NCBI RefSeq assembly: GCF_058153355.1
Contig: NZ_CM177019.1
Direction: 5' to 3' (one strand)
Length of the DNA: 64,000 bases
A program made the position numbers and the translations under genes. This document shows positions 1 to 55,248 of the stretch, in pieces (position 1 is the stretch's first letter; each line of letters begins with the position of its first letter). The notes beneath the pieces were generated by a model. That model was not told the origin of the DNA and ran no database searches. It saw only the letters and a program-made list of their open reading frames with translations.

Positions 1-1560
1 GATCCAGCACCCGTACCTGATAAACGTAGCTGCCGTCGGTCAGCGTGCGGCTGTCAGTGTAAGTCCACTGCGTACCGTTGGTGGTGAGCGTGGTCCAGGT
101 CGCGCCGCCATCGAGGCTAATCTGCGCCACTTCGCCGCTGGCAAGCCCCGCCCCCAGCGAACCGGTCAGCGTGAGCGTGGTATCGCTGGTGATAAAGTCG
201 GTGGCCGAACTCCCCGTATCGGTGCTGATGCTGGCGATGGTGAGCACCTGCACCGGGTTAACGGTGTCAATCTGCGCCGACTGGCTGCCGGTTGCGCCAA
301 CGTTGCCCGCTAAATCAACCACCCGCACCTGCCAGGTGGTGGTGCCGTTGGTCAGCGTACGCCCGTCCACATATGTCCAGTTCAGACCGTCTGCGGCAAC
401 AGTCACGTTCACCCAGGTTGCGCCGTTGTCGGTACTGATTTGCGCGAACTCATTAGCGCCGAGCGCCGCGCCCAGCACGCCGCGCACGGTAAGCGTGGTG
501 TCGCTGGTAATAAAATCGCTGCTGCTGGCTCCGGTGTCATCGCTGATACCGGTAATAGTGATGCTTTTCGCCGCTTCCGGGCTGATGGTGTCGACCACCA
601 CATTTTGCGTCGCGGTCTGCCCGACATTCCCCGCCAGATCCACCACCCGCACCGTGTAGTTCCATGTGCCGTCGGTGAGCGTGCGACTATCGGCATAGCT
701 CCAGCTGGTGCCAATAACGGTTAACGTAGTCCAGGTGACACCGCCGTCGAGGCTGATTTGCGCCCGTTCATCTGCCGCCAGCGCCGCGCCGAGCGTGCCA
801 CGCACGGTCAGCGTAGTGTCACGGGTCACAAAATCGCTGCTGCTTAACCCGGTGTCATCGCTGATGCCCGCAATGACGATGGTTTTGCTCGCCAGCGGCG
901 CGGTGGTATCCACGGTGACTATCTGGCTGGCGGTCGCGCCAATATTTCCGGCGGTGTCGATCACCCGTACCTGATAGTTGTAGTTACCGTCGGTCAGCGT
1001 GCGCCCGTCAAGATAAGTCCAGGTTAATCCATTTACCGCCAGATTCTGCCAGGTGGTGCCGCCATCGATACTGATTTGCGCGAACTCACCAGCAGAGAGC
1101 GCCGCGCCGAGCGTACCACTCACCGCAAGCGTCGTGTCGCTGGTAACAAAATCATTAGTGATCAATCCGGTATCTGTGGTGATCGCGCTGATGGCGATGG
1201 TTTTCACCGCTGGATCTGGCGCGATGGTGTCGATCACCACATTCTGGCTGTCAGTCGCGCCGACGTTGCCCGCCGCGTCAATGACCCGCACCTGATAGAG
1301 ATAATTGCCATCGGTCAGCGTGCGGCTGTCGTTATAGCGCCAGGTCGTGCCGGTAACGGTAAGCGTGGTCCAGGTTACGCCACCGTCGATACTGATTTGC
1401 GCCGTCTCGTTACTGGCAAGCGCGGCGGTGAGCGAGCCGTTGACCGCCACCGGGCTGACGCTGGTGATAAAGTCGCTGGCGCTAAGGCCTGTGTCGGCTT
1501 GCAGGGAATCAATATTAATGCCCATCGCCGGGGCGCTGAGATCGACGGTAATGGTGTGAT
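1..1560 (-). repeat. Second class of roughly 105-aa Ig-like repeats (ISLDGGATW...W.Y.DSRTLTDG.Y type), C-proximal part of the adhesin, continuing off-window
   Basis: Plus-strand alternate-frame ORFs at 78, 708, 1053, 1347 share VVQVxPPSxLICA strings at about 300-330 bp spacing; minus-frame translation at 2-169 and 661-718 gives the motifs. Boundary approximate. Confidence 0.55.
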
Positions 1561-4500
1561 TGCTGCTACCGATGTTGCCAATGGCATTGCTCACCGAAGC
1601 GTTAATCACATAGGCATTGCCGTCCGCCAGCGCGGTGACATCGGCGCTGCCGAGGGTGTAGCTCCAGCTACCACCGGTCTGCACCGTAGTGGTGTAGGTT
1701 TTACCGTTTAAGGTCAGAGTCAGCGTCTGCCCGACTGGGGCGGTGGTGGTGCCGCTGATCACCAAAGACGCGCCGTGTTCCGCCGCGTTCACCACATCAT
1801 CGCCCGCAAAGGTATTGATGGTGACCGTTGGCACGCCGCCATTCAACGTCACGCCACGGCTGGCGCTACCGGGGTTTCCGGCCTGATCGCTGACCGTCGC
1901 GCTGATGGTGTAGCTGCCGTCGCTTAATCCGGCAAACTGCTGCGCCGGAATAAATACCGACCAGCTTCCGCCACTGCCGACCGTTGCGGTCCAGTTTTGT
2001 CCGTTAAAGGTGACGCTCACCGTCTGGCCCGCTTCGGCGGTGGTGGTGCCGCTGATGGTCTGCCCGGCAAGCTGTTCGGCGTTGTTGATAATATCGTCAC
2101 CCGCCACGGTGGCGATGGTCACCGTTGGCGCAACGGTATCGACGGTCAGGGCGTGCGTGGTTTGACCGGGGTTACCCGCACGGTCGTTCACACTGGCGGT
2201 GATGGTCTGCGCGCCTTGCCCGAGTGCTGCCAGATCCGCCACAGGCACGTTCAGCGCCCAGGTGCCATTGGCGGCAACCGTAGCGGTATAGGTTTTGCCG
2301 CCAAAGGTGACAGTGACCGTCTGCCCCACTTCCGCGCTGGTCGAGCCGTTAAGGGTTAACGGCTGCTGCTGTTCGGCGGCGTTGAGTCGATCGTCCGTCG
2401 AAACGGTGTTGATGCTGATAACCGGCGCGGTGAGATCTACCGCCACGCTGCGCGAGGCCGTGGCGCTATTTCCTGCGCTGTCCTGGGCGGAGGCGCTAAC
2501 CGTGTAGCTGGTGCCATCCGCAAGTGCCGCGACGTCTGCCGCCGACACATTCACGCTCCAGCTCCCGTTGTTCTGAATGGTGGCGCTGTAGCCTTTGCCA
2601 TTAAGTAACACGGTCACCACCGTACCTGCGGCAAAGTTCGTTCCGGTGCCGCTCAGGGTCAGCGCACTGCCTGCTTCGGCGGCGTTAATAATATTATCGC
2701 CACTGATGGTGCTGACCGAGAGCGACACCACCGCCGTGTTCACCTGCACGTTGTGCGTCTGCGTGCTGCTGTTGCCTGCGCTATCGGTGATGGTGGCGCT
2801 GATGGTCACCGTGCCGTCCGCAAGGCCGGAAATCACACTGGCTGGCACGCCAACGCTCCAGTTGCCGCTGGCATCGGTGCTGGTAACGTACTGCTGCCCG
2901 GCGATGGTCACCACCAGGCGGTCACCTGCCACCGCGCCCGTGGCGGTGCCGCTGATAATCTGCGCCTGGTTATGTTCGATGTTGTTAATCACATCATCGC
3001 CCGCCACGGTGTTAAAGCTGATGACGGGCGCGGTGGTATCGACGGTGACGCCTTTGCTGGCGCTGCCAGGGTTACCCGCCAGATCGCTGACCGTGGCAGT
3101 CAGGGTGTAGCCGTTATTGGCAAGTGCGGTTAAGTCACTGGCAGGCAGCGTTAAGCTCCAGCTGCCGTCTGCCTGCACCGTGGTCTGGTAGTTAGTGCCG
3201 TTTAGCGTGACGGTGAGCGTTTGCCCGGTTTCCGCCGTGCTGGTGCCGGAAACCGTCACGCCCGCCGCCGCTTCGCTGGCGTTGATGATGTTATCGCTGG
3301 CAATGGTGTTGATGGTCACCGTTGGCGCGGCGCTATCAACGCTGTATTCATGCGTTGTCGTGGCGCTGTTGCCGTTGACGTTAGTCACCCGCACCTGGGC
3401 ACTGGCATCGCCGTCACGCAGAGCCGCCAAATCCGCAGTCGGAACGGTGGTGCTCCAGCTACCGTTAGCCGCCACCGTGGTGGTGTAAGTTTTGCCGCCA
3501 AAGGTAAGGGTAACGGTTTGCCCCGCTTCGACGCCGGATGTGCTACCGGAGAGCGTTAGCGCCGCACCTTTTTCAGTGGCGTTAATCACATCATCGCTGG
3601 TGATGCTGTTCAGGCTGATGGCGACGGTAGTGAGATCAACGGTCAGCGGATGGGTAATGCTGGTTTGTGTTCCGGCACTGTTCGCCCCGCTAACGGTAAT
3701 ATTCAGCGTTCCCGCAGGCCAGTTGCTGACATCCGCCGCCGGAATGCCGACGCTCCAGGTGCCGTTCGCCAACACCGCGGCGGCATAAGTTTGGTTATTT
3801 ATCACCACCGTCAACGCCGTCCCTGGCGCAAAGCCGGAGCTGCTCCCGGTGATCACCTGTGCCTGAGCGTGTTCGATGATATTGACCACATCATCGCCTG
3901 CGACGGTATCTACCCGCAGGCCAGGCAGACTGGCATCTATAGTGATATCGCGCGTGCTGCTGCCGGTATTGCCAACGGCGTTGGTCACCGAGGCGTTAAC
4001 CGTTAATTCACCGTTACCTAACGCCTGCCAGTCAGCGGCTGGTACGCTTACATTCCAGCTTAAATCAGCCTGCACGGTGGCGGTGTAAGTTTTACCGCCC
4101 AGCGTAACGGTGACGGTGCTGCCCGCCGCCGCCCCGGTTACCTGGCCGCTGATGGTTTGTGCGCTACCCGCTTCGGCGGCATTGATAATGTCGTCCGTCG
4201 CCACCGGATTAATGGTGACGCCTGGCAGCGCGGTATTGACCTGCACATTATGGCTGGCAGTACTGCTGTTGCCCTGGGCGTTGGTGACGCTCGCCATCAC
4301 GCTGTAGGTGGCTTCGCCCAGCGCACTGACCGCCGAGGCGGGCACGGTGACGCTCCAGTTGCCGGAGGCATCGGTGGTGGCGCTGTAGTTTTGTCCATTC
4401 AGCGTGACGGTGATCGCCGTGCCCGCAGGCTGATCGCTGGTGCCGGAAAGCGCCAGATTCGATCCTTTTTCCGTCGCGTTGATCACGTCATCGCCCGCGA

Positions 4501-7500
4501 TGGTGTTGATGCTAATCGCTGGCGCGGTGAGGTTAACGGTGACGGTTCGGCTGGCGTCGTCGCTGTTGCCCGCCCGATCGCTGACGCTGGCGGTGATGGT
4601 CTGTGCGCCGCTACTGAGTGCCGCAACATCCGCTGCTGGAACGCCAACGCTCCAGTTGCCGGAGGTATCCAGCGTCGTGGTATACGTTTTGCCATTGAGC
4701 ACAACGCTCACCACATCGCCCGCTTCCCCGCCCGTGCTGGTACCGGAGATCACCAGCGCCTGTGCGTGTTCGGCGTCGTTAATGATGTCATCGCCTGCCA
4801 CGGTGTTAATGGTGAGAACCGGCGCGGTGGTGTCTACCGCCAGATTATGGCTGGCGCTGCCGGGATTGCCCGCTTTGTCGTTGACCGTGGCGCTGACGGT
4901 GTAATTGCTTGCGGTGAGCGCGACCAGGGCTGAAGTGGGAACGCTGACGCTCCAGCTACCGTCCTCCTGTACATTACCGGTGTAAGTTGCGCCGTTAAGG
5001 GTGACGGTGACCGTCTGCCCGGTTTCGGCGGTGCTGGTGCCGCTGATGGTGAGCGGGTTTCCCGCCTCCGTGGCGTTAAGAATATCGTCGCTGGCGATGA
5101 TGTTAATGGTGAGCGTCGGTGCGCTGGCATCAACGCTATACGCATGAGTTGCCGACGCGTTGTTGCCGCTCGCGCTGCTGACACTGGCCTGCACGTTCGC
5201 CGCGCCGTCTGGCAGGCTTGCCAAATCTGCCGCTGGAACGTTCACGCTCCAGCTACCGTTGGCGGCGACGCTTGCGGTGTAGGTTTTGCCGCCAAAAGTG
5301 ACGGTTACGGTTTGCCCGCTTTCAATCCCGCTGGTGCTGCCAGAAAGGGTCAGGTCGGTGCCTTTTTCAGCGGCGTTAATTACGTCATCGCTGGCAACGG
5401 TGTTGATGCTGATTGCCACAGCCGTTAAATCGACGGTGAACGGATGGCTGACGCTGACCGGGTTTCCGGCGCTGCTCTGTCCTGTCACGTCAACGGTTAA
5501 CGGCCCCGCTGGCCAGGCGCTGACGTTTACTGCCGGAATACCGACGCTCCAGCTCCCGTCTGCCTGTACCGTGGCAGAATAAGCCACACTGTTGATGGAA
5601 ACCGTCAGCACAGCACCTGCATTCAGGCCACTACTGCCACCAGTGATCACCAGTGCCTGACCATGCTCGATGCTGTTGACGATATCATCGCCCGCCACGG
5701 TATCCACGCGCAGCCCCGGCAGGTTGGCATCAATGGTGATATCCCGCGTGCCGCTACCGGTGTTGCCATTCGCGTTGGTGACCGAGGCGGTAATGGTCAA
5801 ATCACCATTGCCCAACGCCTGGAGATCGGCTGCCGGAACGCTGACGCTCCAGCTTAAGTTGCCCTGTACCGTAGCGGTGTAAGTGTTACCGCCCAGCGTC
5901 ACGGTGACTGTATCGCCAGCGGCGGCGCGGGTCACCACCCCGCTGATGGTTTGATCGGCCCCGGCTTCGGCGGCGTTGATAATATCGTCGTCCGCCACGG
6001 TATTGATGGTGACGCCTGGCAGGCCGCTGTCGACCAGTAAATTCGCCTGGCTGCTGGCGGTGTTGCCTGCCGCACTGGTGGCGCTGGCGCTGACGGTATA
6101 GTTAGCCTGACCTAAGGCCGCCAGATCGCTCACCGGCACGGTTAAGGTCCAGTTGCCTGCTGCGTCGGTGGTAGCGCTGTAGTTATGACCGTTGAGCGTG
6201 ACGGTAACCTGTGCGCCGGTCGCCAGCCCCGTACTGCTACCGCTGATGGTCAACGGCTGGCCTTTTTCATCGGCGTTCAGGACGTTATCGCTGCTGATGG
6301 CGTTAAAGGTAATGGTCGGCAGCCCGGTATTGACCGTCACCTGATGGGTGGCGCTGCCGCTGTTTCCGGCGGCGTCAGTGACGCTGGCGTTAATGGTCAC
6401 CGTGCCGTTTGCCAGTGCCGAAACAACGCTTGCCGGGACGCCGACGCTCCAGTTGCCGCTGGCATCCAGCACCGTGGTGAAGGTATTTGTGCCGATAGTC
6501 ACCGTCACGGTGTTACCGGTTGCCGCACCAGTGGCAGAGCCGCTGATAATCTGCGCCTGGGCGTGTTCCGTCGCGTTGATCACATCATCACCCGCGACAG
6601 TGTTGATGGTGACGACCGGAACGGAAGTATCCACCGTCAGGTTGTGGTTAACCGAGGTCGGGTTTCCGGCCTTGTCGCTCACCGCCGCGCTGACGGTGTA
6701 GTTGCTGGCGGTCAGAGCGCTTAAGTCGGCTGGCGGTACGCTGATACTCCAACTGCCGTCCGTTTGTACCGTGCCAGTATAGTTTGCGCCATTGAGCGTG
6801 ACGGTCACCGTCTGCCCGGCTTCCGCCGTGCTGCTGCCGGTGATGGTCAGCGCAGCTCCCGCTTCGGCGGCGTTAAGAATGTCGTCGCCCGCGATGGTGT
6901 TGATGGTCACCGTTGGCGCGCTGGCATCGACGCTGTAAGCGTGGGTCGTGGTGGCGCTGTTGCCGTTAACATTACTGACGCTGGCCTGCGCGCTGGCATC
7001 ACCATCACGCAGGGCTGCCATATCTGCCGCCGGAACCGTGGTGCTCCACGAACCATTCGCCGCGACGCTTGCGCTATATGTTTTGCCGCCAAAGGTCACA
7101 GTGACCGTTTGTCCGGCTTCGACACCAGAAGTGCTGCCGGAGAGCGTTAACGCCGCGCCTTTTTCGGCGGCGTTAATCACATCATCGGCGGTAATGGCGT
7201 TGATGCTGACAGCCACCGCCGAGAGATCGACAGTCACCGGATGCGTAACGCTGACCGGGTTTCCGGCGGTAGTGCTGCCGCTCGCCGTAATCGTCACCGC
7301 CCCCGCAGGCCAGGCGCTGACATCCACCGCCGGAACGCCGACGCTCCAGGTGCCATCCGCCAGCACTGCCGCAACATAGGTTTGCCCGTTAATGGTCAGC
7401 GTGACATTGCTACCCACCGCCAGCCCAGAGCTGCTGCCGGTAATCACCAGCGCCTGACCGTGCTCGATAATGTTGACCACATCATCGCCCGCCACGGTAT

Positions 7501-10500
7501 CGACCCGCAGACCGGGGAGATTCGCGTCTATGGTGATTTCGCGCGTGCCGTTACCGGTATTGCCTACGCTGTTCGTTACCGAAGCCGAAATGGTCAGCTC
7601 TCCGTTGCCCAACGCCTGTAACGCCGAAGCCGGAACATCGACACTCCAGCTTAAGTCTGCCTGTACCGTAGCGGTGTACGTCGCCCCACCGAGCGTCACG
7701 GTCACCGTATCGCCCGCCGCGGCCCTCGTGACCTGCCCGCTGATAGTTTGAGTTGCCCCCGCTTCGGCGGCGTTAATAATATCGTCCGTTGCCACAACGT
7801 TAATGGTGACGCCCGGTAGCGCGGTATTAACCTGCACGTTATGGCTGGCGGAACCGCTATTGCCATCAACATCGGTTGCGGCGGCAGTCACCGTATAAGT
7901 CGCTTCACCGAGCGTACCAACCGCAGACGCCGGAACAGTCACGCTCCAGTTCCCGGAAGCATCGGCAGTGGTGGTGTAATTTTGCCCGTTGAGCGTAACA
8001 GTTACCTGCGTGCCCGCAGGCTGGTTGCTGGTGCCGGAAATCGACAGATCCGCGACTTTCTCCGTGGCGTTGATGATGTCATCGACGGCGATGGTGTTAA
8101 TGGCGAGTATCGGTGTACCGAGCGCCACGCTGACAGTGTGCGAGGCCGTGCCGCTGTTGCCTGCGGAGTCGGTAACCGTGGCGGTAATGGTCACATCGCC
8201 CTGGGCCAGCGCGGAAATCACGCTGGCAGGCACGCCGATGCTCCAGTTGCCGTTGGCGTCCAGCACGGTGGTGTAGGTGGTCGTGCCAATCGTCACGGAA
8301 ACCGTGTTACCCGTCGTCGCGCCCGTTGCCGAGCCGCTGATAATCTGCGCCTGAGCATGTTCCGTGGCGTTAATGATGTCATCGCCCGCTACCGTGTTAA
8401 TGGTGACGACCGGAGCGGCAAGATCCACCGTCAGGTTATGCGTTGCCGAGGTTGGGTTGCCCGCTTTGTCGCTGACCGCCGCGCTCACCGTATAGGGGCT
8501 GGCGGTAAGGTCGGCTAAATCGCCAGTTGGTACGCTGACGCTCCAGCTCCCGTCTGCCTGCACGTTGCCGCTGTAATTGATGCCGTTTAGCGTCACGGTC
8601 ACTGTCTGCTCGGCTTCTGCGGTGCTGGTGCCGCTGATGGTCAGCGCCGATCCCGCTTCGGCGGCATTAATAATGTCATCGGTTGCCACTGCGTTAATGG
8701 TAACGCCAGGTAAGGCGCTGTTGACCAGCACATTATGGCTGGCGGAATTACTGTTGCCTGCCGTGTCGGTAACGCTCGCCGTTACCGTGTAGTTGGCTTC
8801 ACCCAACGCGCTAGCTGCCGAGGCTGGAACCGTAGCGCTCCAGTTGCCACTGCTATCGGTGGTAGCGGTGTAATTTTGCCCGTTCAGCGTCACCGTTATT
8901 GTGGTGCCTGCGGGCTGATTACTGGTGCCGGTGATTTGCAGATCCGCGCCTTTTTCTGTGGCGTTAATCACGTCATCGCTGGCGATAGTATTGATACCTA
9001 TCGTTGGCGAGGTGAGATTCACGGTGACCGTACGGCTGGCATCATCGCTGTTGCCTGCTACATCGGTAATTGCCGCAGTGATGGTTTGCGGGCCGCTGCC
9101 CAGCGCAGTGACGTCTGCTGCCGGAACGCCGACGCTCCAGTTGCCGGAGGCGTCCAGCGTGGTAGTGTAGGTTTTACTGTTTAACGTGATGGTGATGACA
9201 TCGCCCGCTTCCCCGCCAGTGCTGGAACCGGAGATCACAAGCGCCTGTCCGTGTTCGGCGGCGTTAATGATGTCATCGCCGGAGACGGTGTTAATGGTTA
9301 AAACTGGCACGGTGAGATCCACCGCCAGGCCGTGAGTGGCGGTCGCCGGGTTACCCGCTTTGTCGCTTACCGAGGCGCTAACCGTGTACGGGCTGGCGGT
9401 CAGATTGCTGAGATCTGTTGTCGGCACGCTGACGCTCCAGCTACCGCCCGCCTGAACGGTGCCGATGTAAGCCACACCATTAAGCGTGACGGTTACCGTT
9501 TGCCCCGCTTCCACGCCGGAAGTACTGCCGGAAAGGGTTAAATCTGCCCCTTTTTCGGCGGCGTTAATCACATCATCGCCGGAAACGGTGTTAATGGAGA
9601 TCGCCACCGCTGCCAGATCGACGGTGACCGGATGGGTGATGGTGGAGGTTGTTCCGGCAGTGTTAGTGCCGCTTACCGTGATATCCACCGTCCCCGCAGG
9701 CCAGTTGCCCACATCTGCTGCCGGAACGCCAAGGCTCCATGTGCCATCGGCTAATACTGTCGCAGCGTAAGTGACCGTGTTAATCACCACCGTCAGCGCC
9801 GCGCCCGCCGCCAGCCCGCTGCTGCTACCGGTTATCACCAGTGCCTGACCGTGCTCGATGCTGTTAACCACATCATCGCCCGCCACGGTATCAACGCGCA
9901 GACCTGGCAGATTGGCATCTATCACAATATCGCGCGCACCGCTGCCGGTATTACCCACGCCGTTGGTTACCGAGGCGTTAACTGTCAGGTCGCCATTACC
10001 GATGGCCTGAATATCCGCCGCCGGAACGTCCACGCTCCAGCTTAAATTGCCCTGCACAGTAGCGGTGTAGGTTTTCCCGCCAAGCGTCACGGTAACCGTA
10101 TCGCCCGCCGCCGCGCCCGTCACCTGGCCGCTGATGGTCTGCGCCACGCCCGATTCCGCCGCGTTAATAATATCGTCGGTCGCCACCGGATTAATGGTGA
10201 CACCCGGCAGCGCGGTATTCACCTGCACGTTATGGCTGGCGGAATTGCTATTGCCCGCGCTGTCGGTGACGTTCGCCGTCACCGTGTAGCTGGCTTCGCC
10301 CAGCGCACCGACGGCAGAGGCTGGCACCGTGGTGCTCCAGTTGCCTGCGGCGTCCGTCGTGGCGGAGTAATTTTGCCCGTTAAGCGTCACCGTAATTGTG
10401 GTGCCTGTTGGCTGATTACTGGTGCCGGAAATTTGCAGATCCGCGCCTTTTTCGGTGGCGTTAATTATGTCATCGGTAGCGATGGTATTAATGCCAATAG

Positions 10501-13500
10501 TCGGCACGGTAAGGTTGACGGTGACCGTATGCGTCTCGTTGTCGCTGTTACCTGCCACATCGGTAACGGTGGCTGTCACGGTTTGCGGGCCGCTGCCCAG
10601 CGCAGAGACATCCGCAGCCGGAACGCCGACGCTCCAGTTTCCGGAGGCATCCAGCGTCGTGGTGTAGGTTTTACTATTTAGCGTGACGCTGACAACATCG
10701 CCCGCTTCTCCGCCGGTGCTGGAACCGGAAATCACCAGCGCCTGCCCGTGTTCGGCGGCGTTAATAATATCATCGCCCGCAATGGTGTTAATGGTCAGTA
10801 CCGGAACGGTGAGATCCACCGCCAGATTATGCGTGGTGCTCGCCGGGTTGCCCGCTTTGTCATTGACCGTCGCCGTCAGGGTATGGCTGCCATCGGTCAG
10901 AGCGGCAAGATCTGCCGCCGGAATATTAATACTCCAGCTGCCGTCGGCCTGTACCGTTGCCTGATAGGTCTGCACAGTTGGGCTGTTAAGCGTTACCGTA
11001 ACAATCTGCCCCGCTTCAGCGGTGGTGCTGCCGCTCACCGTCACGCCCGTATCGGCTTCGCTGGCGTTAACGATATTGTCGCTGGCAACGGTATTGATAA
11101 TGATGGTTGGCGCGCTGCTGTCGACGCTGTAGTTATGCACCGCCGAGGCGCTATTGCCATTGATATTGCTGACGCTGGCCTGCGCGGAGGCGCTGCCCTC
11201 AGGTAATGCTGCCAGATCGGCGGCAGGAACGGTGGCAGTCCAGCTACCATCGCTCGCCACGCTGGCGGTGTAATTTTTCCCGCCAAAGTTGACGGTGACG
11301 GTTTGTCCTGGCTCTACATTAGTGGTGGTGCCGGAAAGGGTTAAATCAGCGCCTTTTTCTGCGGCGTTAATCACGTCGTCCGTGGCGATGGTGTTGATTG
11401 TGATCGCCGCCGGCGTGAGATCCACCGTTACCGGATGCGTAATGCTTATCGGATTTCCGGCGCTACTTTCCCCGGATACAGCAATAGACACCGTCCCCGC
11501 AGGCCAGGCGCTAACCTGCGCCGCCGTGACGCCCACGCTCCAGCTACCATCGGCCTGCACCGCAGTGGTGTATTCCACATTATTAATCGTAACTGTAAGC
11601 GGGGTGCCTTCAGCCAGCCCCGAGCTGCTGCCGGTGACCACCAGCGCCTGCCCGTGTTCGATGATATTGACCACATCATCGCCCGCTACCGTATCGACCC
11701 GCAGACCGGGCAGATTGGCGTCGATGGTGATATCCCGCGTGCCGCTGCCGGTGTTGCCGTTTTGATTGGTGACCGAGGCGCTCACCGTTAAATCACCATT
11801 ACCCAGCGCCTGAATATCCGCCGCCGGAACGCTCACGCTCCAGCTTAAATTGGCCTGCACGGTGGCGGTGTAAGTATTACCGCCCAGCGTAACGGTTACC
11901 GTGTCGCCAACGGCAGCTCCGGTAACCTGCCCGCTGATGGTTTGCGCTACGCCCGCTTCGGCGGCGTTAATAACATCGTCGGCTGCCACCGGGTTAATGG
12001 TCACGCCGGGCAGCGCGCTGTCGACCAGCACGTTATGGCTGGCGGTGGCGCTGTTGCCGATATCGCTGGTCACCGCCGCCGTTACCGTATAGTTGGCCTG
12101 GCCCAGTGCGGTTACCGCCGATGCCGGAACGGTGACGCTCCAGTTGCCGGAGGCGTCGGTCGTGGTGGTGTAATTTTGCCCGTTCAGCGTCACGGTGATG
12201 GCGGTATTAACAGGCTGATCGCTGGTGCCGGTAATCTGGAGATCGGCTCCTTTTTCGCTGGCGTTGATCACATCATCGCCCGCAATGCTGTTAATGCCGA
12301 TAAGGGGCGCAGCGGTATTGACCGTGACAGTCAGTGACTGGCTGCCCGTGTTTCCTGCGCGGTCGGTTACCGAGACGCTGACAGGATAACTGCCGTCCAC
12401 CAGTCCGCTGACAACGGAAGCCGGAACGCCCAGGCTCCAGTTGCCGGAAGCATCTACCACCGTGGTGTAATCCACATCATTCAGCGTAACGGTGACGATA
12501 TCGCCCGCCTGAGCGCCAGTAACCGTGCCGCTGATGATTTGCGCCTGGGTATGTTCCGGCGTGTTAATGACGTTATCGGTCGCCACCGGATTAATGGTTA
12601 CCACCGGCGGCGTGGCATCGACCAGCGCCACGCGTGAAACGTTGCTCGGGTTACCCGCGACATCGTTCACGCTGGCGGTCACCGTGGCGTTGCCGTCAGC
12701 CAGCGCGCCCACGTTGGCGGCGGGAACGGTCACGCTCCAGGTGCCATCTGACTGCACGACGCCCTGATAGGTCTGCCCATTCAGCGTAACGGTCACCGTC
12801 TGCCCCGGCTGAGCGTCGGTGGTGCCCGTGATTTGCAGATCCTGACCACTTTCGGCGGCATTAATGATGTTATCAGCCGTCAGCGAGTCAATGCTTAAGG
12901 CCGGGGCCTGGCTGTCGACGGTAATGGTGCGGGAGGTGTCGCCTGTGTTACCGCTGATATTAGTGACGGTCGCAGTGATTTCCGCCGCACCGTCTGCCAG
13001 GCTACTCACCGCGCTGGCGGGAACGGTCAGGCTCCAGCCGCCACCTGCCTGAACGGTAGTGGTAAAGGTCTGCCCGGCGAATTTCACTACTACGGTTTGC
13101 CCGGTTTCCACCAGCTGCGTGGTACCGGTCAGCGTCAATGGCGCGCCTTTTTCTGCGGCATTGATAATGTCATCGCCGGAGACGGTATTGATGGTAATAA
13201 GCACCGCGCCCGGATTAACCTCCACGTTGCGATCGATAGTAACCGGGTTCCCGGCGGGGTCCGTTGCGCTGGCATTAACCACTATCGTACCCGGCGTCAG
13301 TGCCTGTAGATCTGCCGCAGGCACGCCTACCTGCCAGTTGCCGTTGCTGTCGGTCACCCCCTGGTAGGTGTTGCCGCCGAGCAAAACAGTGACCACTCTT
13401 CCGGCGGGCAAATTAGTACTGCTACCGGTGATAATCAGGTTTTGCTGCTGCTCAACGGCATTGATCACATCATCGCCCGCGATGGTGTCAATGCGCAGCC

Positions 13501-19843: not shown

Positions 19844-20034
19844 CTTTTGTTAACTCCTTTTTATAGATGCGGGAGGGGATTCCTCACCCCGGTGCCGATT
19901 TTCAGGCATCCTGATTTAACTTAGCACCCGCGACTTAACTACAGGAAAACAAAGAGATAAATGTCTAATCCTGATGCAAATTGAGCCGATTTTTTAATCT
20001 TTACGGACTTTTACCCGCCTGGTTTATTAATTTC

Positions 20035-20066
20035 TTGACCTTCCCCTTGCTGGAAGGTTTAACCTT
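20035..20066 (+). promoter_or_regulatory. copA promoter with CueR (MerR-family) operator
   Basis: TTGACC at 20035-20040 followed by dyad CCTTCC-N7-GGAAGG at 20039-20057, a long MerR-type spacer and a -10-like element, about 40 bp upstream of the copA ATG. Confidence 0.75.
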
Positions 20067-20104
20067 TAACACAGTCAGTCAACACTGTCTTAAAGGAGTA
20101 CGTT

Positions 20105-22609
20105 ATGTCACAAACTATCGACCTGACCCTGGACGGCCTGTCCTGCGGTCACTGCGTTAAACGCGTGAAAGAAAGTCTCGAACAGCGCCCGGACGTTGAG
20201 CAGGCGGATGTGTCTATCACTGAAGCACACGTTACCGGTACTGCCAGTGCAGAACAGCTGATCGAAACCATCAAACAAGCGGGTTATGACGCATCTGTAA
20301 GCCACCCAAAGGCTAAACCGCTGGCGGAGTCATCAATCCCGTCGGAAGCACTGACAGCGGTTTCTGAGGCGCTTCCGGCAGCAAACGCCGATGACGATGA
20401 CAGTCAGCAGTTGCTGCTGAGCGGCATGAGCTGCGCCAGCTGTGTTACCCGCGTACAAAATGCGCTGCAAAGCGTACCGGGCGTCACTCAGGCACGGGTA
20501 AACCTGGCGGAGCGTACTGCGCTGGTGATGGGCAGTGCCTCCCCACAAGATTTAGTGCTGGCGGTGGAAAAAGCGGGCTACGGCGCGGAAGCGATTGAAG
20601 ATGACGCTAAACGCCGCGAGCGCCAGCAGGAAACCGCCGTCGCTACCATGAAGCGCTTCCGCTGGCAGGCAATTGTCGCGCTGGCGGTAGGTATCCCGGT
20701 GATGGTCTGGGGGATGATCGGCGATAACATGATGGTCACCGCCGACAACCGCAGTCTGTGGTTAGTTATCGGCCTGATAACGCTGGCGGTAATGGTTTTC
20801 GCCGGCGGGCATTTTTACCGTAGCGCATGGAAAAGCCTGCTGAACGGTGCGGCGACAATGGATACGCTGGTGGCGCTGGGTACTGGCGTGGCGTGGCTCT
20901 ATTCAATGAGCGTCAACCTGTGGCCGCAGTGGTTCCCGATGGAAGCGCGACATCTTTATTACGAAGCCAGTGCGATGATTATCGGTCTGATTAATCTCGG
21001 TCATATGCTGGAAGCGCGCGCACGTCAGCGTTCTTCAAAGGCGCTGGAGAAATTACTCGATTTAACCCCGCCGACGGCGCGCCTGGTTACTGACGAAGGT
21101 GAAAAAAGCGTGCCACTGGCAGATGTTCAGCCTGGTATGTTACTACGCCTGACGACCGGCGATCGCGTACCGGTAGATGGTGAAATTACCCAGGGCGAAG
21201 CGTGGCTGGATGAAGCAATGCTGACGGGCGAACCTATCCCACAGCAAAAAGGCGAAGGCGATAGTGTTCATGCAGGTACCGTGGTGCAGGACGGTAGCGT
21301 GCTGTTTCGTGCCAGTGCGGTTGGCAGCCATACTACGCTGTCACGGATCATTCGTATGGTGCGCCAGGCCCAGAGCAGTAAACCGGAAATCGGCCAGTTG
21401 GCGGATAAAATCTCTGCCGTATTTGTGCCGGTAGTGGTGGTGATTGCGCTAGTCAGTGCGGCCATCTGGTACTTCTTTGGTCCGGCACCGCAAATTGTTT
21501 ATACCCTGGTGATTGCCACTACGGTACTGATTATCGCCTGCCCGTGTGCGCTGGGGCTGGCAACGCCAATGTCGATTATTTCCGGCGTCGGGCGTGCGGC
21601 TGAATTTGGCGTGCTGGTACGGGACGCCGACGCGCTGCAACGCGCCAGTACGCTCGACACCGTAGTGTTCGATAAAACCGGGACGCTGACCGAAGGGAAG
21701 CCGCAGGTTGTCGCAGTAAAAACATTTGCTGATGTTGATGAAGCGCAAGCATTGCGTCTGGCGGCGGCACTGGAACAAGGTTCCAGCCATCCGCTGGCAC
21801 GGGCGATCCTCGATAAAGCAGGCGATATGCAGCTGCCGCAGGTCAACAGCTTCCGTACATTGCGTGGGCTGGGCGTGAGCGGTGAAGCAGAAGGTCATGC
21901 GTTATTGCTGGGTAATCAGGCGTTGTTAAATGACCAGCAAGTCGATACTAAAGCGATTGAAGCAGATATTTCAGCCCAGGCATCGCAAGGGGCAACGCCT
22001 GTGCTGCTGGCGGTTGACGGGAAAGCGGTAGCCCTGCTGGCTGTACGCGATCCATTGCGTAGTGATAGCGTGGCGGCGCTGCAACGTCTGCATAAAGCGG
22101 GATATCGTCTGGTGATGCTAACCGGGGATAACCCGACCACCGCCAATGCGATCGCCAAAGAGGCAGGGATTGATGAGGTGATAGCCGGGGTGCTGCCAGA
22201 CGGTAAAGCCGAAGCGATCAAACGTCTGCAAAGTGAAGGACGTCAGGTGGCAATGGTGGGTGACGGCATTAACGACGCGCCAGCACTGGCTCAGGCGGAT
22301 GTCGGTATTGCTATGGGTGGCGGCAGTGATGTTGCCATTGAAACCGCGGCGATTACCCTGATGCGCCATAGCCTGATGGGTGTTGCGGATGCGCTCGCAA
22401 TTTCCCGCGCAACGCTGCGCAACATGAAGCAGAACCTGCTCGGTGCGTTTATCTACAACAGCATTGGTATTCCGGTCGCCGCCGGTATTTTGTGGCCGTT
22501 CACGGGAACACTGCTTAACCCGGTAGTAGCCGGGGCAGCAATGGCACTCTCGTCGATTACCGTAGTGAGTAACGCCAACCGGTTGCTGCGGTTTAAACCG
22601 AAGGAATAA
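20105..22609 (+). CDS. copA: Cu(I)-translocating P1B-type ATPase
   Basis: 834-aa ORF; two N-terminal CxxC metal-binding domains (GLSCGHC, GMSCASC), CPC motif, DKTGT phosphorylation site, GDGINDAP. Confidence 0.97.
20305..20316 (+). other. copA: Programmed -1 ribosomal frameshift site in copA, producing the short CopA(Z) chaperone
   Basis: Slippery heptamer C_CCA_AAG at 20305-20311 at codons 68-70 (verified in frame: ...SHPKAKP). The -1 frame reads CCC AAA GGC TAA, with the stop at 20314-20316. The frameshift itself is established literature, not shown by sequence alone. Confidence 0.7.
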
Positions 22610-22659
22610 GTATGTCATTGCGGATGCGCTGCTTTAGGGTGGCGCATCTGGCATCGACG

Positions 22660-22805
22660 CATGCCTGCCGGATGCGGCATAAACGCCTTATCCGGCCTAC
22701 GATTCAGGCACAGGGTTGTAGGCCTGATAAGACGCGTAAGCGTCGCATCAGGCAATGGTGCTCGGATGCCGGATGCGGCGTGAACGCCTTATCCGGCATC
22801 CGAGA
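22660..22805. repeat. REP/BIME cluster (three REP units) in the copA-ybaP intergenic region
   Basis: Canonical REP palindromes (gcctgccggatgcggcataaacgccttatccggcctac and variants) in alternating orientation; the ORF-track 85-aa ORF at 22612-22869 is the typical REP translation artefact (RMRHKRLIRP). Confidence 0.8.
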
Positions 22806-22937
22806 TGAAGCGAATTTTTGGCCTTACGCGACCTTTTTGCACGTTATTCCCGGCGTGCCAAATATTTAATCCGTCCCAACTCCATTTGCGCCATCCCTCA
22901 CCGCGCGCTAGCATGATATTTCACAAAGGGAGGTCGT

Positions 22938-23732
22938 ATGGATCTGTTGTACCGGGTAAAAACGCTTTGGGCCGCGCTGCGCGGCAATCATTACACCTGG
23001 CCTGCTATCGATATCTCTCTTCCCGACCATCGCCATTTTCATCTGATCGGCAGTATTCATATGGGTAGCCACGATATGGCTCCCCTGCCCACCCGTTTGC
23101 TCAAAAAGCTCAAAAACGCCGATGCGCTGATCGTCGAGGCGGATGTTTCCACCAGCGATACGCCTTTTGCTAATTTGCCTGCCTGCGAGGCGCTGGAAGA
23201 GCGCATTAGCGAGGAGCAATTACAAAATCTGCAACACATAAGCCAGGAGATGGGTATTTCTCCATCGCTCTTTTCTACCCAACCACTATGGCAAATCGCG
23301 ATGGTTCTTCAGGCAACGCAAGCGCAAAAACTGGGGCTGCGGGCAGAATATGGTATCGATTACCAGCTATTGCAGGCGGCGAAGCAACAACATAAACCCG
23401 TGATTGAACTGGAAGGGGCAGAAAACCAGATTGCCATGTTGCTCCAGCTCCCTGACAAAGGACTGGCGCTGCTGGACGATACGCTGACCCACTGGCACAC
23501 CAATGCACGGTTGCTGCAACAAATGATGAGCTGGTGGCTGAATACGCCGCCGCAAAATAATGAAATAACGCTGCCCAATACGTTCAGTCAGTCGCTGTAC
23601 GATGTGCTGATGCATCAGCGAAATCTCGCCTGGCGGGATAAACTGCATGCTATGCCGCCGGGGCGCTATGTGGTCGCGGTCGGAGCTTTACATCTGTATG
23701 GAGAAGGGAATTTGCCGCAGATGTTGCGCTAA
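22938..23732 (+). CDS. ybaP: TraB-family protein YbaP
   Basis: 264-aa ORF matching YbaP by sequence recall and position. Confidence 0.9.
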   Translation: MDLLYRVKTLWAALRGNHYTWPAIDISLPDHRHFHLIGSIHMGSHDMAPLPTRLLKKLKNADALIVEADVSTSDTPFANLPACEALEERISEEQLQNLQHISQEMGISPSLFSTQPLWQIAMVLQATQAQKLGLRAEYGIDYQLLQAAKQQHKPVIELEGAENQIAMLLQLPDKGLALLDDTLTHWHTNARLLQQMMSWWLNTPPQNNEITLPNTFSQSLYDVLMHQRNLAWRDKLHAMPPGRYVVAVGALHLYGEGNLPQMLR

Positions 23733-23814
23733 AAAAATGGCCAATATCGCTATTGGCCCGTCAAAGAGGAATTTCATTTTTTTATTATTATGCCGTCACT
23801 TTAAGCGACGGTGT
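23733..23814 (-). ncRNA. chiX: ChiX (MicM/SroB) Hfq-dependent small RNA
   Basis: Minus-strand sequence ACACCGTCGCTTAAAGTGACGGCATAATAATAAAAAAATGAAATTCCTCTTTGACGGGCCAATAGCGATATTGGCCATTTTTTT matches my recollection of ChiX, including the terminator hairpin (GGCCAATAGCGATATTGGCC) and U-tract. Lies in the ybaP-ybaK intergenic region, antisense to both, as in K-12. Ends are approximate. Confidence 0.8.
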
Positions 23815-37671: not shown

Positions 37672-39603
37672 TCAAATGGGGCGGATACTTTCTTCATCCA
37701 GCTCCGCATCGAAGAATCGACGCAGGGTCTGAATATTATTATCCGCAATAATGGACTCGCGCGCCTGCGCAAGTTTTTCTTCGTATATCGCCTGACGCCA
37801 TTCCAGCGGCGTGCGCACCGCGGGATTATCATCTTCAACGATAGTCAGTTCAACCGTTGAACCTTTTAACGTGCTCAACGCTTCAGCCAGTTTTTGCTGT
37901 GCACCGCGGTTGTTTAAATGCCGCTGAGAGGAGCGCAAATGCAGACATACTGCGTTGTCGCTCTCCTCTTTCCAGGCATTTAACGCCACCTGTTCAACCA
38001 GTTTTGGTAGCGAAAGTTGGCTCACCTGTGCCGCCCAAGGATCGCGCTCAATGGCTTCTGCCGCCAGCTTTGCCGCCAGTTCCGGCGTTTTTTCATGTTC
38101 CAGCGCTTTTTTTAGCGCCTTCGGCGTGGCGACCACTTCTTTTTGCTGCATCACTGGAGTGGTAGCCTTCCAGCGATACGCTTCTTTTTTGGCTGGTGCT
38201 TTTTCCAGCGCCGATGGCACCGGACGCGCCTGAACGCGATCGGTGACCGAAGCCAGTCTTTCCAGCGCAGCGTTATTCACCGGCCGCGCGCGGGTAGCGG
38301 CTGCCGGTTCACTCTTTTTTGCTTTGGTTGCTCCCTGCACGCGCTGCAACTGCTGGCGCGCCGCCAGCACCTGGCTGGTGGTTTCCGGGAGCGGTACAGT
38401 CGGTGCCTGCTGCGGCGCTGATTGCGGTTGCGGCGGCACCTGGGTTGGCGTCATTACAGCCGTTGGCGCGACGGGCGCAAAGGACTGGCGTGGCACTTCT
38501 GGCTCAGGCAGCGGCATACGCGGATGGAACGCCAGCGCGCGAAGCAGCGTCATCTCAACACCCATACGGCGGTCTGGCGCATACGGTAATTCTTTGCGAC
38601 CAATCAACAGCGTCTGGTAGTAAAGCTGAATATCCGTCGGCGGTATGGTGCGCGCCAGTTCACGCATCCGCAGCTCGATAGCGGCCATGTCGTTGCCCAG
38701 CGCAGCAGGGGAAAGTTGCACCATTGCAATGCGGTGCAACAGGCCGAGCATTTCTACCAGCAACGCTTCCCACTCAATACCACGAGCGGCGGCTTCATTA
38801 ATCAGCGACATTACACGCTCGCCGTTGGCTTCAACCATCGCTTCAACCAGCGACAGCGCCTGATCGTCGTCAAGCGTACCCAGCATCGCACTGACCGCCT
38901 GGGTTGAAACCTGGCCGTCACCGCTGGCAATTGCCTGGTCGGTTAAACTTAGGGCATCTCGCAAGCTGCCTTCAGCGGCGCGCGCCAGCAGTTGCAGCGC
39001 CCGCGGCTCGTGAGCGATATGTTCTTCGTTGAGGATGTGCTCAAGCTGATGGCGAATTTGCTCGACATCCAGCGCCTTGAGATGAAATTGCAGGCAGCGT
39101 GACAAAATCGTCACCGGCAATTTCTGCGGATCGGTCGTCGCCAGCAGAAACTTGACGTGCTCCGGCGGTTCTTCAAGGGTTTTTAACAGTGCGTTAAAGC
39201 TGTGGCGCGACAGCATATGCACTTCGTCGATCAGATAAACTTTAAAACGACCACGCGCTGGCGCGTACTGGACGTTATCCAGCAGGTCGCGGGTATCTTC
39301 GACTTTGGTGCGCGAGGCGGCGTCGATTTCAATCAGATCGACAAAGCGCCCCTGCTCAATTTCACGACAGTTATCGCACACGCCGCACGGCGTCGCGGTA
39401 ATGCCGGTTTCGCAGTTTAGCCCCTTCGCCAGCAGTCGGGCGATAGAGGTTTTTCCGACGCCACGGGTGCCGGAAAAAAGATAAGCATGATGAATACGCC
39501 CTAACGACAAGCCGTTCGCCAGTGCGGTCAGCACATGTTCCTGGCCGACGACGTCAGCAAAGGTTTGTGGGCGCCATTTTCGGGCTAAGACCTGATAACT
39601 CAT
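37672..39603 (-). CDS. dnaX: DNA polymerase III subunits tau (full length) and gamma (frameshift product)
   Basis: 643-aa ORF with AAA+ motifs (GTRGVGKTS) and a C-terminal tau-specific region. Confidence 0.97.
   Translation of the reverse strand: MSYQVLARKWRPQTFADVVGQEHVLTALANGLSLGRIHHAYLFSGTRGVGKTSIARLLAKGLNCETGITATPCGVCDNCREIEQGRFVDLIEIDAASRTKVEDTRDLLDNVQYAPARGRFKVYLIDEVHMLSRHSFNALLKTLEEPPEHVKFLLATTDPQKLPVTILSRCLQFHLKALDVEQIRHQLEHILNEEHIAHEPRALQLLARAAEGSLRDALSLTDQAIASGDGQVSTQAVSAMLGTLDDDQALSLVEAMVEANGERVMSLINEAAARGIEWEALLVEMLGLLHRIAMVQLSPAALGNDMAAIELRMRELARTIPPTDIQLYYQTLLIGRKELPYAPDRRMGVEMTLLRALAFHPRMPLPEPEVPRQSFAPVAPTAVMTPTQVPPQPQSAPQQAPTVPLPETTSQVLAARQQLQRVQGATKAKKSEPAAATRARPVNNAALERLASVTDRVQARPVPSALEKAPAKKEAYRWKATTPVMQQKEVVATPKALKKALEHEKTPELAAKLAAEAIERDPWAAQVSQLSLPKLVEQVALNAWKEESDNAVCLHLRSSQRHLNNRGAQQKLAEALSTLKGSTVELTIVEDDNPAVRTPLEWRQAIYEEKLAQARESIIADNNIQTLRRFFDAELDEESIRPI
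38309..38320 (-). other. dnaX: dnaX programmed -1 frameshift site (A_AAA_AAG) with immediate -1-frame UGA, producing gamma
   Basis: Plus-strand ctttttt at 38314-38320 is the complement of AAAAAAG at codons AKK of ...GATKAKKSEPAA (0-frame verified by hand). The -1 frame reads AAA AAA GAG UGA, with the stop at plus 38309-38311. A GC-rich potential stem follows on the mRNA (plus 38281-38307). Confidence 0.85.
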
Positions 39604-55134: not shown

Positions 55135-55248
55135 GGGTGGGGGCCCTGCCAGCTACATCCCGGCACACGCGTCATCTGCCTTGGCTGCTTCCTTCCGGAC
55201 CTGACCTGGTAAACAGAGTAGCGTTGCGGGAGAACCAACAGAGCCCCC
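55135..55248 (-). ncRNA. ffs: 4.5S RNA (signal recognition particle RNA)
   Basis: Minus strand reads GGGGGCTCTGTTGGTTCTCCCGCAACGCTACTCTGTTTACCAGGTCAGGTCCGGAAGGAAGCAGCCAAGGCAGATGACGCGTGTGCCGGGATGTAGCTGGCAGGGCCCCCACCC, 114 nt, matching the E. coli 4.5S RNA as recalled. Confidence 0.95.

Follow-up and report, generated by a model that had tools for sequence, protein, structure and literature searches.

The copA gene of the analysed DNA, a stretch of 64,000 nucleotides (hereafter the window), very probably carries the known programmed −1 ribosomal frameshift site that gives rise to the copper chaperone CopA(Z). As judged from its sequence, the feature is already known and not new, being the same as the type example in Escherichia coli K-12, with which it shares the gene, the position within the gene, 143 nucleotides and the product (Meydan et al. 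2017 Mol Cell 65:207; Drees et al. 2017 Mol Microbiol 106:635). The same frameshifting would therefore be expected in the strain from which the window was derived. The coordinates of the host gene, the recoding signals and the predicted RNA structure are listed in Table 1.

Table 1 Host gene, recoding signals and predicted RNA structure of the copA frameshift site (positions of the window)
Feature	Position	Strand	Detail and basis
copA promoter with CueR operator	20035-20065	+	sequence reading; same as K-12 here
Shine-Dalgarno AAGGAG of copA	20093-20098	+	6 nt 5' of the ATG; sequence reading
copA ORF	20105-22609	+	834 codons, ATG at 20105
copA zero-frame product	20105-22609	+	834-aa Cu(I)-exporting P1B-type ATPase; ORF and Pfam
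CopA(Z) coding region	20105-20316	+	frame 0 at 20105-20311, then −1 frame at 20311-20316
First HMA domain (MBD1)	20126-20290	+	residues 8-62; Pfam PF00403, E=1.2e-13 on the 70-aa product
Slippery heptamer C_CCA_AAG	20305-20311	+	last base of His67, then Pro68 and Lys69
Spacer GCUAAA	20312-20317	+	6 nt, heptamer to stem 1; holds the −1 stop
−1 frame stop TAA	20314-20316	+	translation of the window
Stem 1 5' arm CCGCUG-G-CGG	20318-20327	+	predicted partner 20351-20360
Stem 2 5' arm GUCGGAAGC	20341-20349	+	predicted partner 20371-20379
Stem 1 3' arm CUG-A-CAGCGG	20351-20360	+	predicted partner 20318-20327
Stem 2 3' arm GCUUCCGGC	20371-20379	+	predicted partner 20341-20349
Second HMA domain (MBD2)	20417-20581	+	residues 105-159; Pfam, best HMA stretch

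The host gene of the cassette was identified as a CueR-regulated P1B-type ATPase by its domain architecture, by a promoter and operator equal to those of K-12, and by the glsA-ybaT / copA / ybaP synteny, which was retained relative to K-12. The Pfam search of full-length CopA returned two HMA domains together with E1-E2_ATPase and Hydrolase (HAD), and the matching gene was annotated as copA in 5,421 complete E. coli genomes. The first metal-binding domain carries the CGHC motif at residues 14-17 and matched solved structures of HMA, CopZ-like and ATP7B metal-binding domains; the second is found in full-length CopA only and not in CopA(Z). The promoter consists of a −35 box TTGACC (20035-20040) and a −10 box TAACCT (20060-20065) with a 19-bp spacer, inside which lies the CueR dyad ACCTTCC-N7-GGAAGGT (20038-20058), and from established knowledge of PcopA we take it to be a MerR-type promoter controlled by CueR. 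A sigma-70 scan with spacings of 16-18 nt found no match at this promoter, as expected because the spacer is 19 bp long. Since the promoter and its dyad are the same as in K-12, the pump and CopA(Z) should both be copper-induced. The interval between the Shine-Dalgarno sequence and the ATG differs in three bases, which read ACG here and GTT in K-12.

In the zero frame the site reads CAC (His67) CCA (Pro68) AAG (Lys69) GCT (Ala70) AAA (Lys71), while a reading in the −1 frame, starting at 20305, gives CCC AAA GGC TAA. The heptamer is in phase with the ORF starting at 20105 and lies past the end of the Pfam HMA domain at residue 62. With G20311 read twice in the two-piece frame and the −1 TAA following immediately, the predicted product is 70 aa long and ends in ...SHPKG, the last residue being glycine. 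The first-pass annotation had described an intact frameshift signal directly behind the first metal-binding domain, with a TAA two codons on in the −1 frame and a chaperone of roughly 70 aa made from the 5' end of copA, and had matched it to the published CopA(Z) case. These points agree with the window sequence, in which neither the heptamer nor the stop is mutated or lost. Its assignment of the heptamer to codons 68-70 holds for the −1 frame reading only, whereas in the zero frame the heptamer is made up of the last base of codon 67 and codons 68-69.

C_CCA_AAG was the sole in-phase heptamer of the form X_XXY_YYZ within copA. Across the 27 large ORFs of the window (17,578 codons), 18 in-phase heptamers with X different from Y were counted, or about one per 1,000 codons, a tally which leaves out homopolymer types such as A_AAA_AAG of dnaX; the copA site was the only X_XXA_AAG among these 18. 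The window contains three copies of the string CCCAAAG itself, whereas 7.8 would be expected. The motif by itself is thus no better than chance, and the surrounding context is decisive.

This context is the same as in K-12. Over the whole gene, copA of the window showed 94.8% nucleotide identity to that of K-12 MG1655 (5.2% divergence) with 10 amino acid differences, but the cassette itself is without differences: a run of 143 nt (20240-20382; CDS 136-278), the longest identical run in copA, matches MG1655 exactly, and heptamer, −1 stop and predicted pseudoknot all lie entirely within it. Residues 1-93 of CopA, including all 69 before the slip, are also the same as in K-12, so that an equal effect of the nascent chain would be expected. 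The predicted 70-aa peptide is exactly identical to YP_009518752.1 of K-12 and to the CopA(Z) isoform in UniProt, and the K-12 RefSeq record contains the same 212-nt two-piece CDS under the name 'soluble Cu(+) chaperone'. Among the 5,422 complete E. coli genomes carrying the cassette, an exact copy of its 81 nt (20300-20380) was present in 5,344, and the remaining 78 had a cassette that was 95-99% identical. A control 81-mer taken from the same gene 140 nt upstream was found exactly in one genome, with 3,306 genomes at 90-95% identity. The copA allele of the window reached 99% identity in only one complete RefSeq E. coli genome, and the dnaX of the window in none (best 98.8%, against a threshold of at least 99%).

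Downstream of the heptamer, an H-type pseudoknot of about 62 nt (20318-20379) was predicted, which starts 6 nt past the heptamer and reaches about 68 nt downstream. The first-pass annotation had proposed a structure prediction for the 30 nt downstream; a stimulatory structure was indeed predicted, but with a span of about 62 nt. Stem 1 joins 20318-20323 to 20355-20360 and 20325-20327 to 20351-20353. The energies computed for each stem alone were −11.1 kcal/mol for stem 1 and −14.2 kcal/mol for stem 2. In an alignment of 72 distinct cassettes (A3), standard pairs occupied 96% of the pseudoknot cells, compared with 18-45% in slid controls, and changes on both sides were seen at five pairs, a number matched by none of 500 shuffles. 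Stem 1 was paired in 98.9% of the cells. Its pair 20321-20357 was C-G in 54 cassettes, U-A in 17 and U-G in one, the outermost pair was C-G in 70 and A-U in one, and the pair 20326-20352 was A-U in 61 and G-U in 10, the window being among the latter. All 17 U-A cells of pair 20321-20357 belong to one clade and probably reflect one or two events, so that the number of independent compensatory events is small, about two or three. Stem 2 was paired in 93% of the cells; its outer five pairs reached 97-100%, and the inner four were broken in up to 16 sequences from one divergent clade.

A plain minimum free energy fold of 96 nt gave a nested structure that was not significant (z=−1.19). The nested helix, which uses the 3' arm of stem 1, was paired in 43.6% of the cells, equal to the shuffled controls, and was rejected. 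Because this helix is not conserved and the two-stem arrangement is, the comparison points to the H-type pseudoknot as the conserved fold at 20318-20379. Its 6-nt spacing from the heptamer is proper for such an element, the exact match to K-12 continues up to 20382, and the 72 relatives show compensatory changes.

To cover wider relatives, metagenome contigs were scanned with a degenerate pattern of the MBD1 CxxC motif, which lies about 170 nt upstream of the site, so that the resulting sample was unselected for the frameshift site itself. Together with the genomes in hand, the matches gave 108 distinct copA 5' regions. A contig scan with full-length CopA yielded only three Enterobacterales loci and was dominated by the generic P-type ATPase motif MVGDGIND. 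In 106 of the 108 regions C_CCA_AAR was in phase, with exactly one sense codon between it and a stop in the −1 frame, and the two exceptions (L107 and L130) carry assembly indels. The second slippery codon was AAG in 104 and AAA in two of the 106, and the stop was TAA in 66 and TGA in 40. The protein sequence around the site varied: the residue before Pro-Lys was H, S, R, F, Y, L or P, and the residues after it were A, P, S, T or L and then K, D, E or N. Despite this turnover, the codon before Pro-Lys always ended in C and the next two codons were always NNT RAN, a pattern which would be expected for selection on the heptamer and the −1 stop and not on the protein.

Synonymous diversity was calculated from a codon alignment of 100 sequences. 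It was 0.14 over codons 66-92, compared with 0.48 in the MBD1 codons 24-65 and 0.39 in codons 97-150 (Mann-Whitney p=6e-10). It fell to 0.00 at Pro68 and 0.04 at Lys69, and to 0.00-0.08 at codons 89-92, which cover the 3' arm of stem 2. The cassette is under strong purifying selection at synonymous sites, with conservation far beyond chance. An upstream Shine-Dalgarno-like stimulator in the style of dnaX was also considered as a part of the cassette. A GGAG 10-13 nt upstream occurs in many relatives but is absent from E. coli and from the window, and this candidate was rejected as not conserved.

Frameshifting at copA of K-12 has been demonstrated experimentally, supported by ribosome profiling and confirmed independently (PMC9548414, PMC7558416, PMC6771820, PMC5009743, citing Meydan 2017 and Drees 2017), and further literature also counts in favour of this reading (PMC10861913). 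It has been reported that the frameshift in E. coli is efficient, with a ribosome-profiling drop-off that fits the −1 stop (PMC9548414), and that it is stimulated by the nascent chain as well as by the pseudoknot and the slippery sequence (PMC7558416, citing Meydan 2017 for the nascent chain). The copA pseudoknot stalled ribosomes in single-molecule assays (PMC6182138), and the truncated CopA product protects cells from copper (PMC6771820). In the strain of the window, a ribosome on the CueR-controlled copA mRNA would likewise arrive at C_CCA_AAG with CCA in its P site, paired with tRNA-Pro, and AAG in its A site, paired with tRNA-Lys, and there the pseudoknot 6 nt downstream would hinder unwinding. 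Some ribosomes would then slip one base back, placing the tandem tRNAs onto CCC and AAA, decode GGC as glycine and terminate at TAA. The released 70-residue CopA(Z), consisting of the first metal-binding domain, would serve as a soluble Cu(I) chaperone, and the ribosomes that do not slip would produce the full 834-residue Cu(I) export pump.

Frameshifting may not be the sole route to the chaperone in this gene. Going by the title of the work of Drees and colleagues, a separate short transcript reportedly exists besides frameshifting. One alternative reading is that the chaperone, or a free MBD1, arises mainly from such a transcript or from proteolysis, with slippage being minor and the RNA structure serving 3'-end formation or stability. 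That title, which appears among the references of PMC9548414 and PMC7558416, names 'differential transcript formation' beside frameshifting, and a stable structure does lie immediately 3' of the site. However, no intrinsic-terminator-like site was found on the + strand between 20300 and 20700, and the profiling drop-off falls at the −1 stop (PMC9548414). A short transcript would also have no need for an in-phase heptamer with a −1 stop one codon on, yet 106 of 108 relatives retain both although the codons vary. We therefore regard this alternative as improbable. Even less probable is that the conservation has nothing to do with recoding and slippage is incidental, the sequence being held by constraint on the linker between MBD1 and MBD2 or by a pause for MBD1 folding or membrane targeting. 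The linker motif PK..PL...P(S/P)EALTA is indeed conserved at the protein level, and the pseudoknot by itself could be a pause site. The constraint, however, falls on synonymous positions, and the flanks of Pro-Lys vary while the C-ending prior codon and the −1 stop are invariably kept. CCA for proline and AAG for lysine are minority codons in E. coli, and both are essentially invariant all the same. No relative with an intact pseudoknot and a lost heptamer or −1 stop was found among the 106 clean sequences.

That the heptamer is a functionless chance occurrence could be argued from the motif counts given above, as CCCAAAG is not over-represented and in-phase heptamers occur about once per 1,000 codons; the comparative conservation and the experiments on the identical K-12 sequence rule this out for practical purposes. 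The probability is lower still, and practically nil, that RNA polymerase slips on the A run instead of the ribosome. Transcriptional slippage is a known alternative source of frameshifted products, with nothing specific to this site (reviewed in PMC5009743). CCCAAAG contains only three A's, and a conserved pseudoknot at 6-nt spacing behind an X_XXY_YYZ heptamer is a hallmark of ribosomal slippage. Productive transcriptional slippage requires much longer homopolymer runs.

Programmed −1 ribosomal frameshifting at copA can be compared with other known systems, one of which is found in the same window. The dnaX element (RF00382) was detected at 38275-38339 on the − strand with 96.8 bits. The tau/gamma shift of dnaX and the shift of copA are both chromosomal −1 shifts at a heptamer of the X_XXA_AAG type, decoded with the single tRNA-Lys of E. 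coli, and both have a downstream RNA structure and a near-immediate −1 stop, which makes the frameshift product truncated and functional. The two differ in that dnaX uses A_AAA_AAG, an upstream Shine-Dalgarno-like AGGGAG and a simple stem-loop, whereas in copA the heptamer is C_CCA_AAG, the structure is a pseudoknot, no Shine-Dalgarno-like element is conserved upstream and the nascent chain reportedly contributes (PMC7558416). The −1 pseudoknot sites of viruses and insertion sequences (coronavirus ORF1a/1b; orfA-orfB of the IS3 family) likewise have an H-type pseudoknot placed 5-8 nt after a heptamer, but there the shift lengthens the protein into a new long frame, while the copA shift truncates it.

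At the protein level, stand-alone chaperones of the CopZ/Atx1 type, such as CopZ of Enterococcus hirae and Bacillus subtilis, also have about 70 aa, a single HMA domain and a CxxC motif, and deliver Cu(I) to CopA (PMC7558416). They are encoded by a gene of their own, whereas CopA(Z) arises by recoding of the pump gene. Ten distant copA loci were found to start with a separate CopZ-type ORF of 50-96 aa. A different arrangement was observed in Photorhabdus caribbeanensis (Morganellaceae), where the cassette stands after the second of three metal-binding (HMA) domains (L005, 1911-1922). It reads C_CCA_AAA followed by TGA and shows the same pseudoknot topology, with a compensatory C-G in stem 2. 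If slippage occurs there, a two-domain chaperone of 140 aa is predicted.

The first-pass annotation had also expected the site to be easily overlooked, and the public records agree. Genomes of E. coli annotated by PGAP list copA alone at the site and leave the 70-aa product unannotated, and in a collection of about 15 billion proteins the exact 70-aa sequence was on record from only two contigs. Since automatic pipelines list copA alone, hardly any genome record contains the 70-aa protein. In a search of 20250-20450 against Rfam 15, no family rose above noise (best hit 14.4 bits; gathering score 46), because a copA model is lacking and not because the site is defective. The dnaX element, in contrast, has both an Rfam model and a PGAP mark, and the copA element has neither.

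For the strain itself the result is routine, in that it would retain the way in which E. coli obtains a cytosolic copper chaperone. In practice the finding is of use for annotation, as no Rfam model flags the copA element, unlike that of dnaX. The geometry shared by 106 of 108 relatives, the alternation of TAA and TGA, the covariation in stem 1 and the conservation of the stem 2 core could serve as a seed for such a model. It is possible, though we put this forward tentatively and at somewhat less than even chances, that the cassette of heptamer, one codon, −1 stop and two-stem pseudoknot is an RNA element found throughout the Enterobacterales that has no curated model and exists in architectural variants.

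The copA cassette in Photorhabdus caribbeanensis (locus L005, 1911-1990) is located 3' of the second HMA domain, of which this protein has three. A reading from an early alignment, that Photorhabdus lacked the cassette, was rejected, since the site is present after the second domain. The heptamer is C_CCA_AAA, and the -1 frame then continues with ATC TGA. The pseudoknot has the same topology as in the E. coli-type copA cassette, with stem 1 formed by GCCGCUG/CAGCGGC (-11.7 kcal/mol) and stem 2 by CCGGAAC/GUUCCGG (-9.0 kcal/mol). From this sequence, the frameshift product was predicted to be a 140-aa protein with two CxxC domains.

In a copA-like gene of Propionigenium maris (L068, 1678-1692), A_AAA_AAA lies 56 codons 3' of the CxxC motif and is followed after one codon by a -1 TGA; the geometry and position of the site are the same as for the frameshift site in E. 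coli copA. This site could be due to chance because the genome is AT-rich, and inspection by eye of the downstream RNA structure gave none that was convincing. Two metagenome contigs carry Enterobacteriaceae-like copA genes with changes near the heptamer. One of them (L107) has an additional C past the heptamer (AAAGGCCTAAA) that places TAA in the 0 frame; the extra base reflects either a mistake in the assembly or a naturally occurring allele that truncates the protein. In the other (L119), CAC of His67 is replaced by CCC and the C run is thereby lengthened to CCCCCCAAAG.

Besides copA, the other classic chromosomal -1 frameshift site of E. coli is in dnaX. Its element in the window is ordered as an SD-like AGGGAG, A_AAA_AAG, a -1 TGA and a stem-loop. 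In E. coli genomes annotated by PGAP the dnaX element is marked, whereas the copA site carries no mark.

Features of the window around copA and dnaX
Feature	Position	Strand	Remarks
Giant ORF	2-15814	-	>5,270 codons open; continues past the left end of the window
TolC-family ORF	15923-17278	-	451 aa; adjoins giant ORF, upstream of ybaT
copA-ybaP spacer	22610-22937		328 nt; REP-like repeats
naRNA4	22721-22798	both	Rfam match; inside copA-ybaP spacer
sroB (ChiX) small RNA	23731-23814	-	Rfam; expected place
dnaX frameshift element	38275-38339	-	Rfam RF00382, 96.8 bits; inside 643-codon ORF 37672-39603 (-)
SRP RNA (ffs)	55144-55240	-	Rfam; expected place

Several differences from K-12 were found around copA. 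Three bases between the Shine-Dalgarno sequence and the ATG (20099-20101) are ACG instead of GTT, but the promoter, operator and Shine-Dalgarno sequence are otherwise identical. The copA-ybaP spacer of K-12 is longer (794 nt) and holds the regulator gene ybaQ, which appears to be missing from the window and from strain Z0117EC0005. In K-12, ybaT is immediately followed by cueR in place of the giant and TolC-family ORFs. The frame of the giant ORF is unbroken in the window, whereas its homologue in the closest E. coli genome is annotated as a 21.7-kb Ig-like-domain pseudogene with a frameshift.

The lineage was compared on two regions, copA (19850-22700) and dnaX (37672-39603), against the complete RefSeq E. 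coli genomes. Identity to dnaX was 95-99% in all 5,424 genomes, none of which reached 99% (best 98.8%), and the copA region was only 90-95% identical in most of them. Judged from these sequences, the source of the window seems to be a lineage of Escherichia without close representatives among complete genomes.
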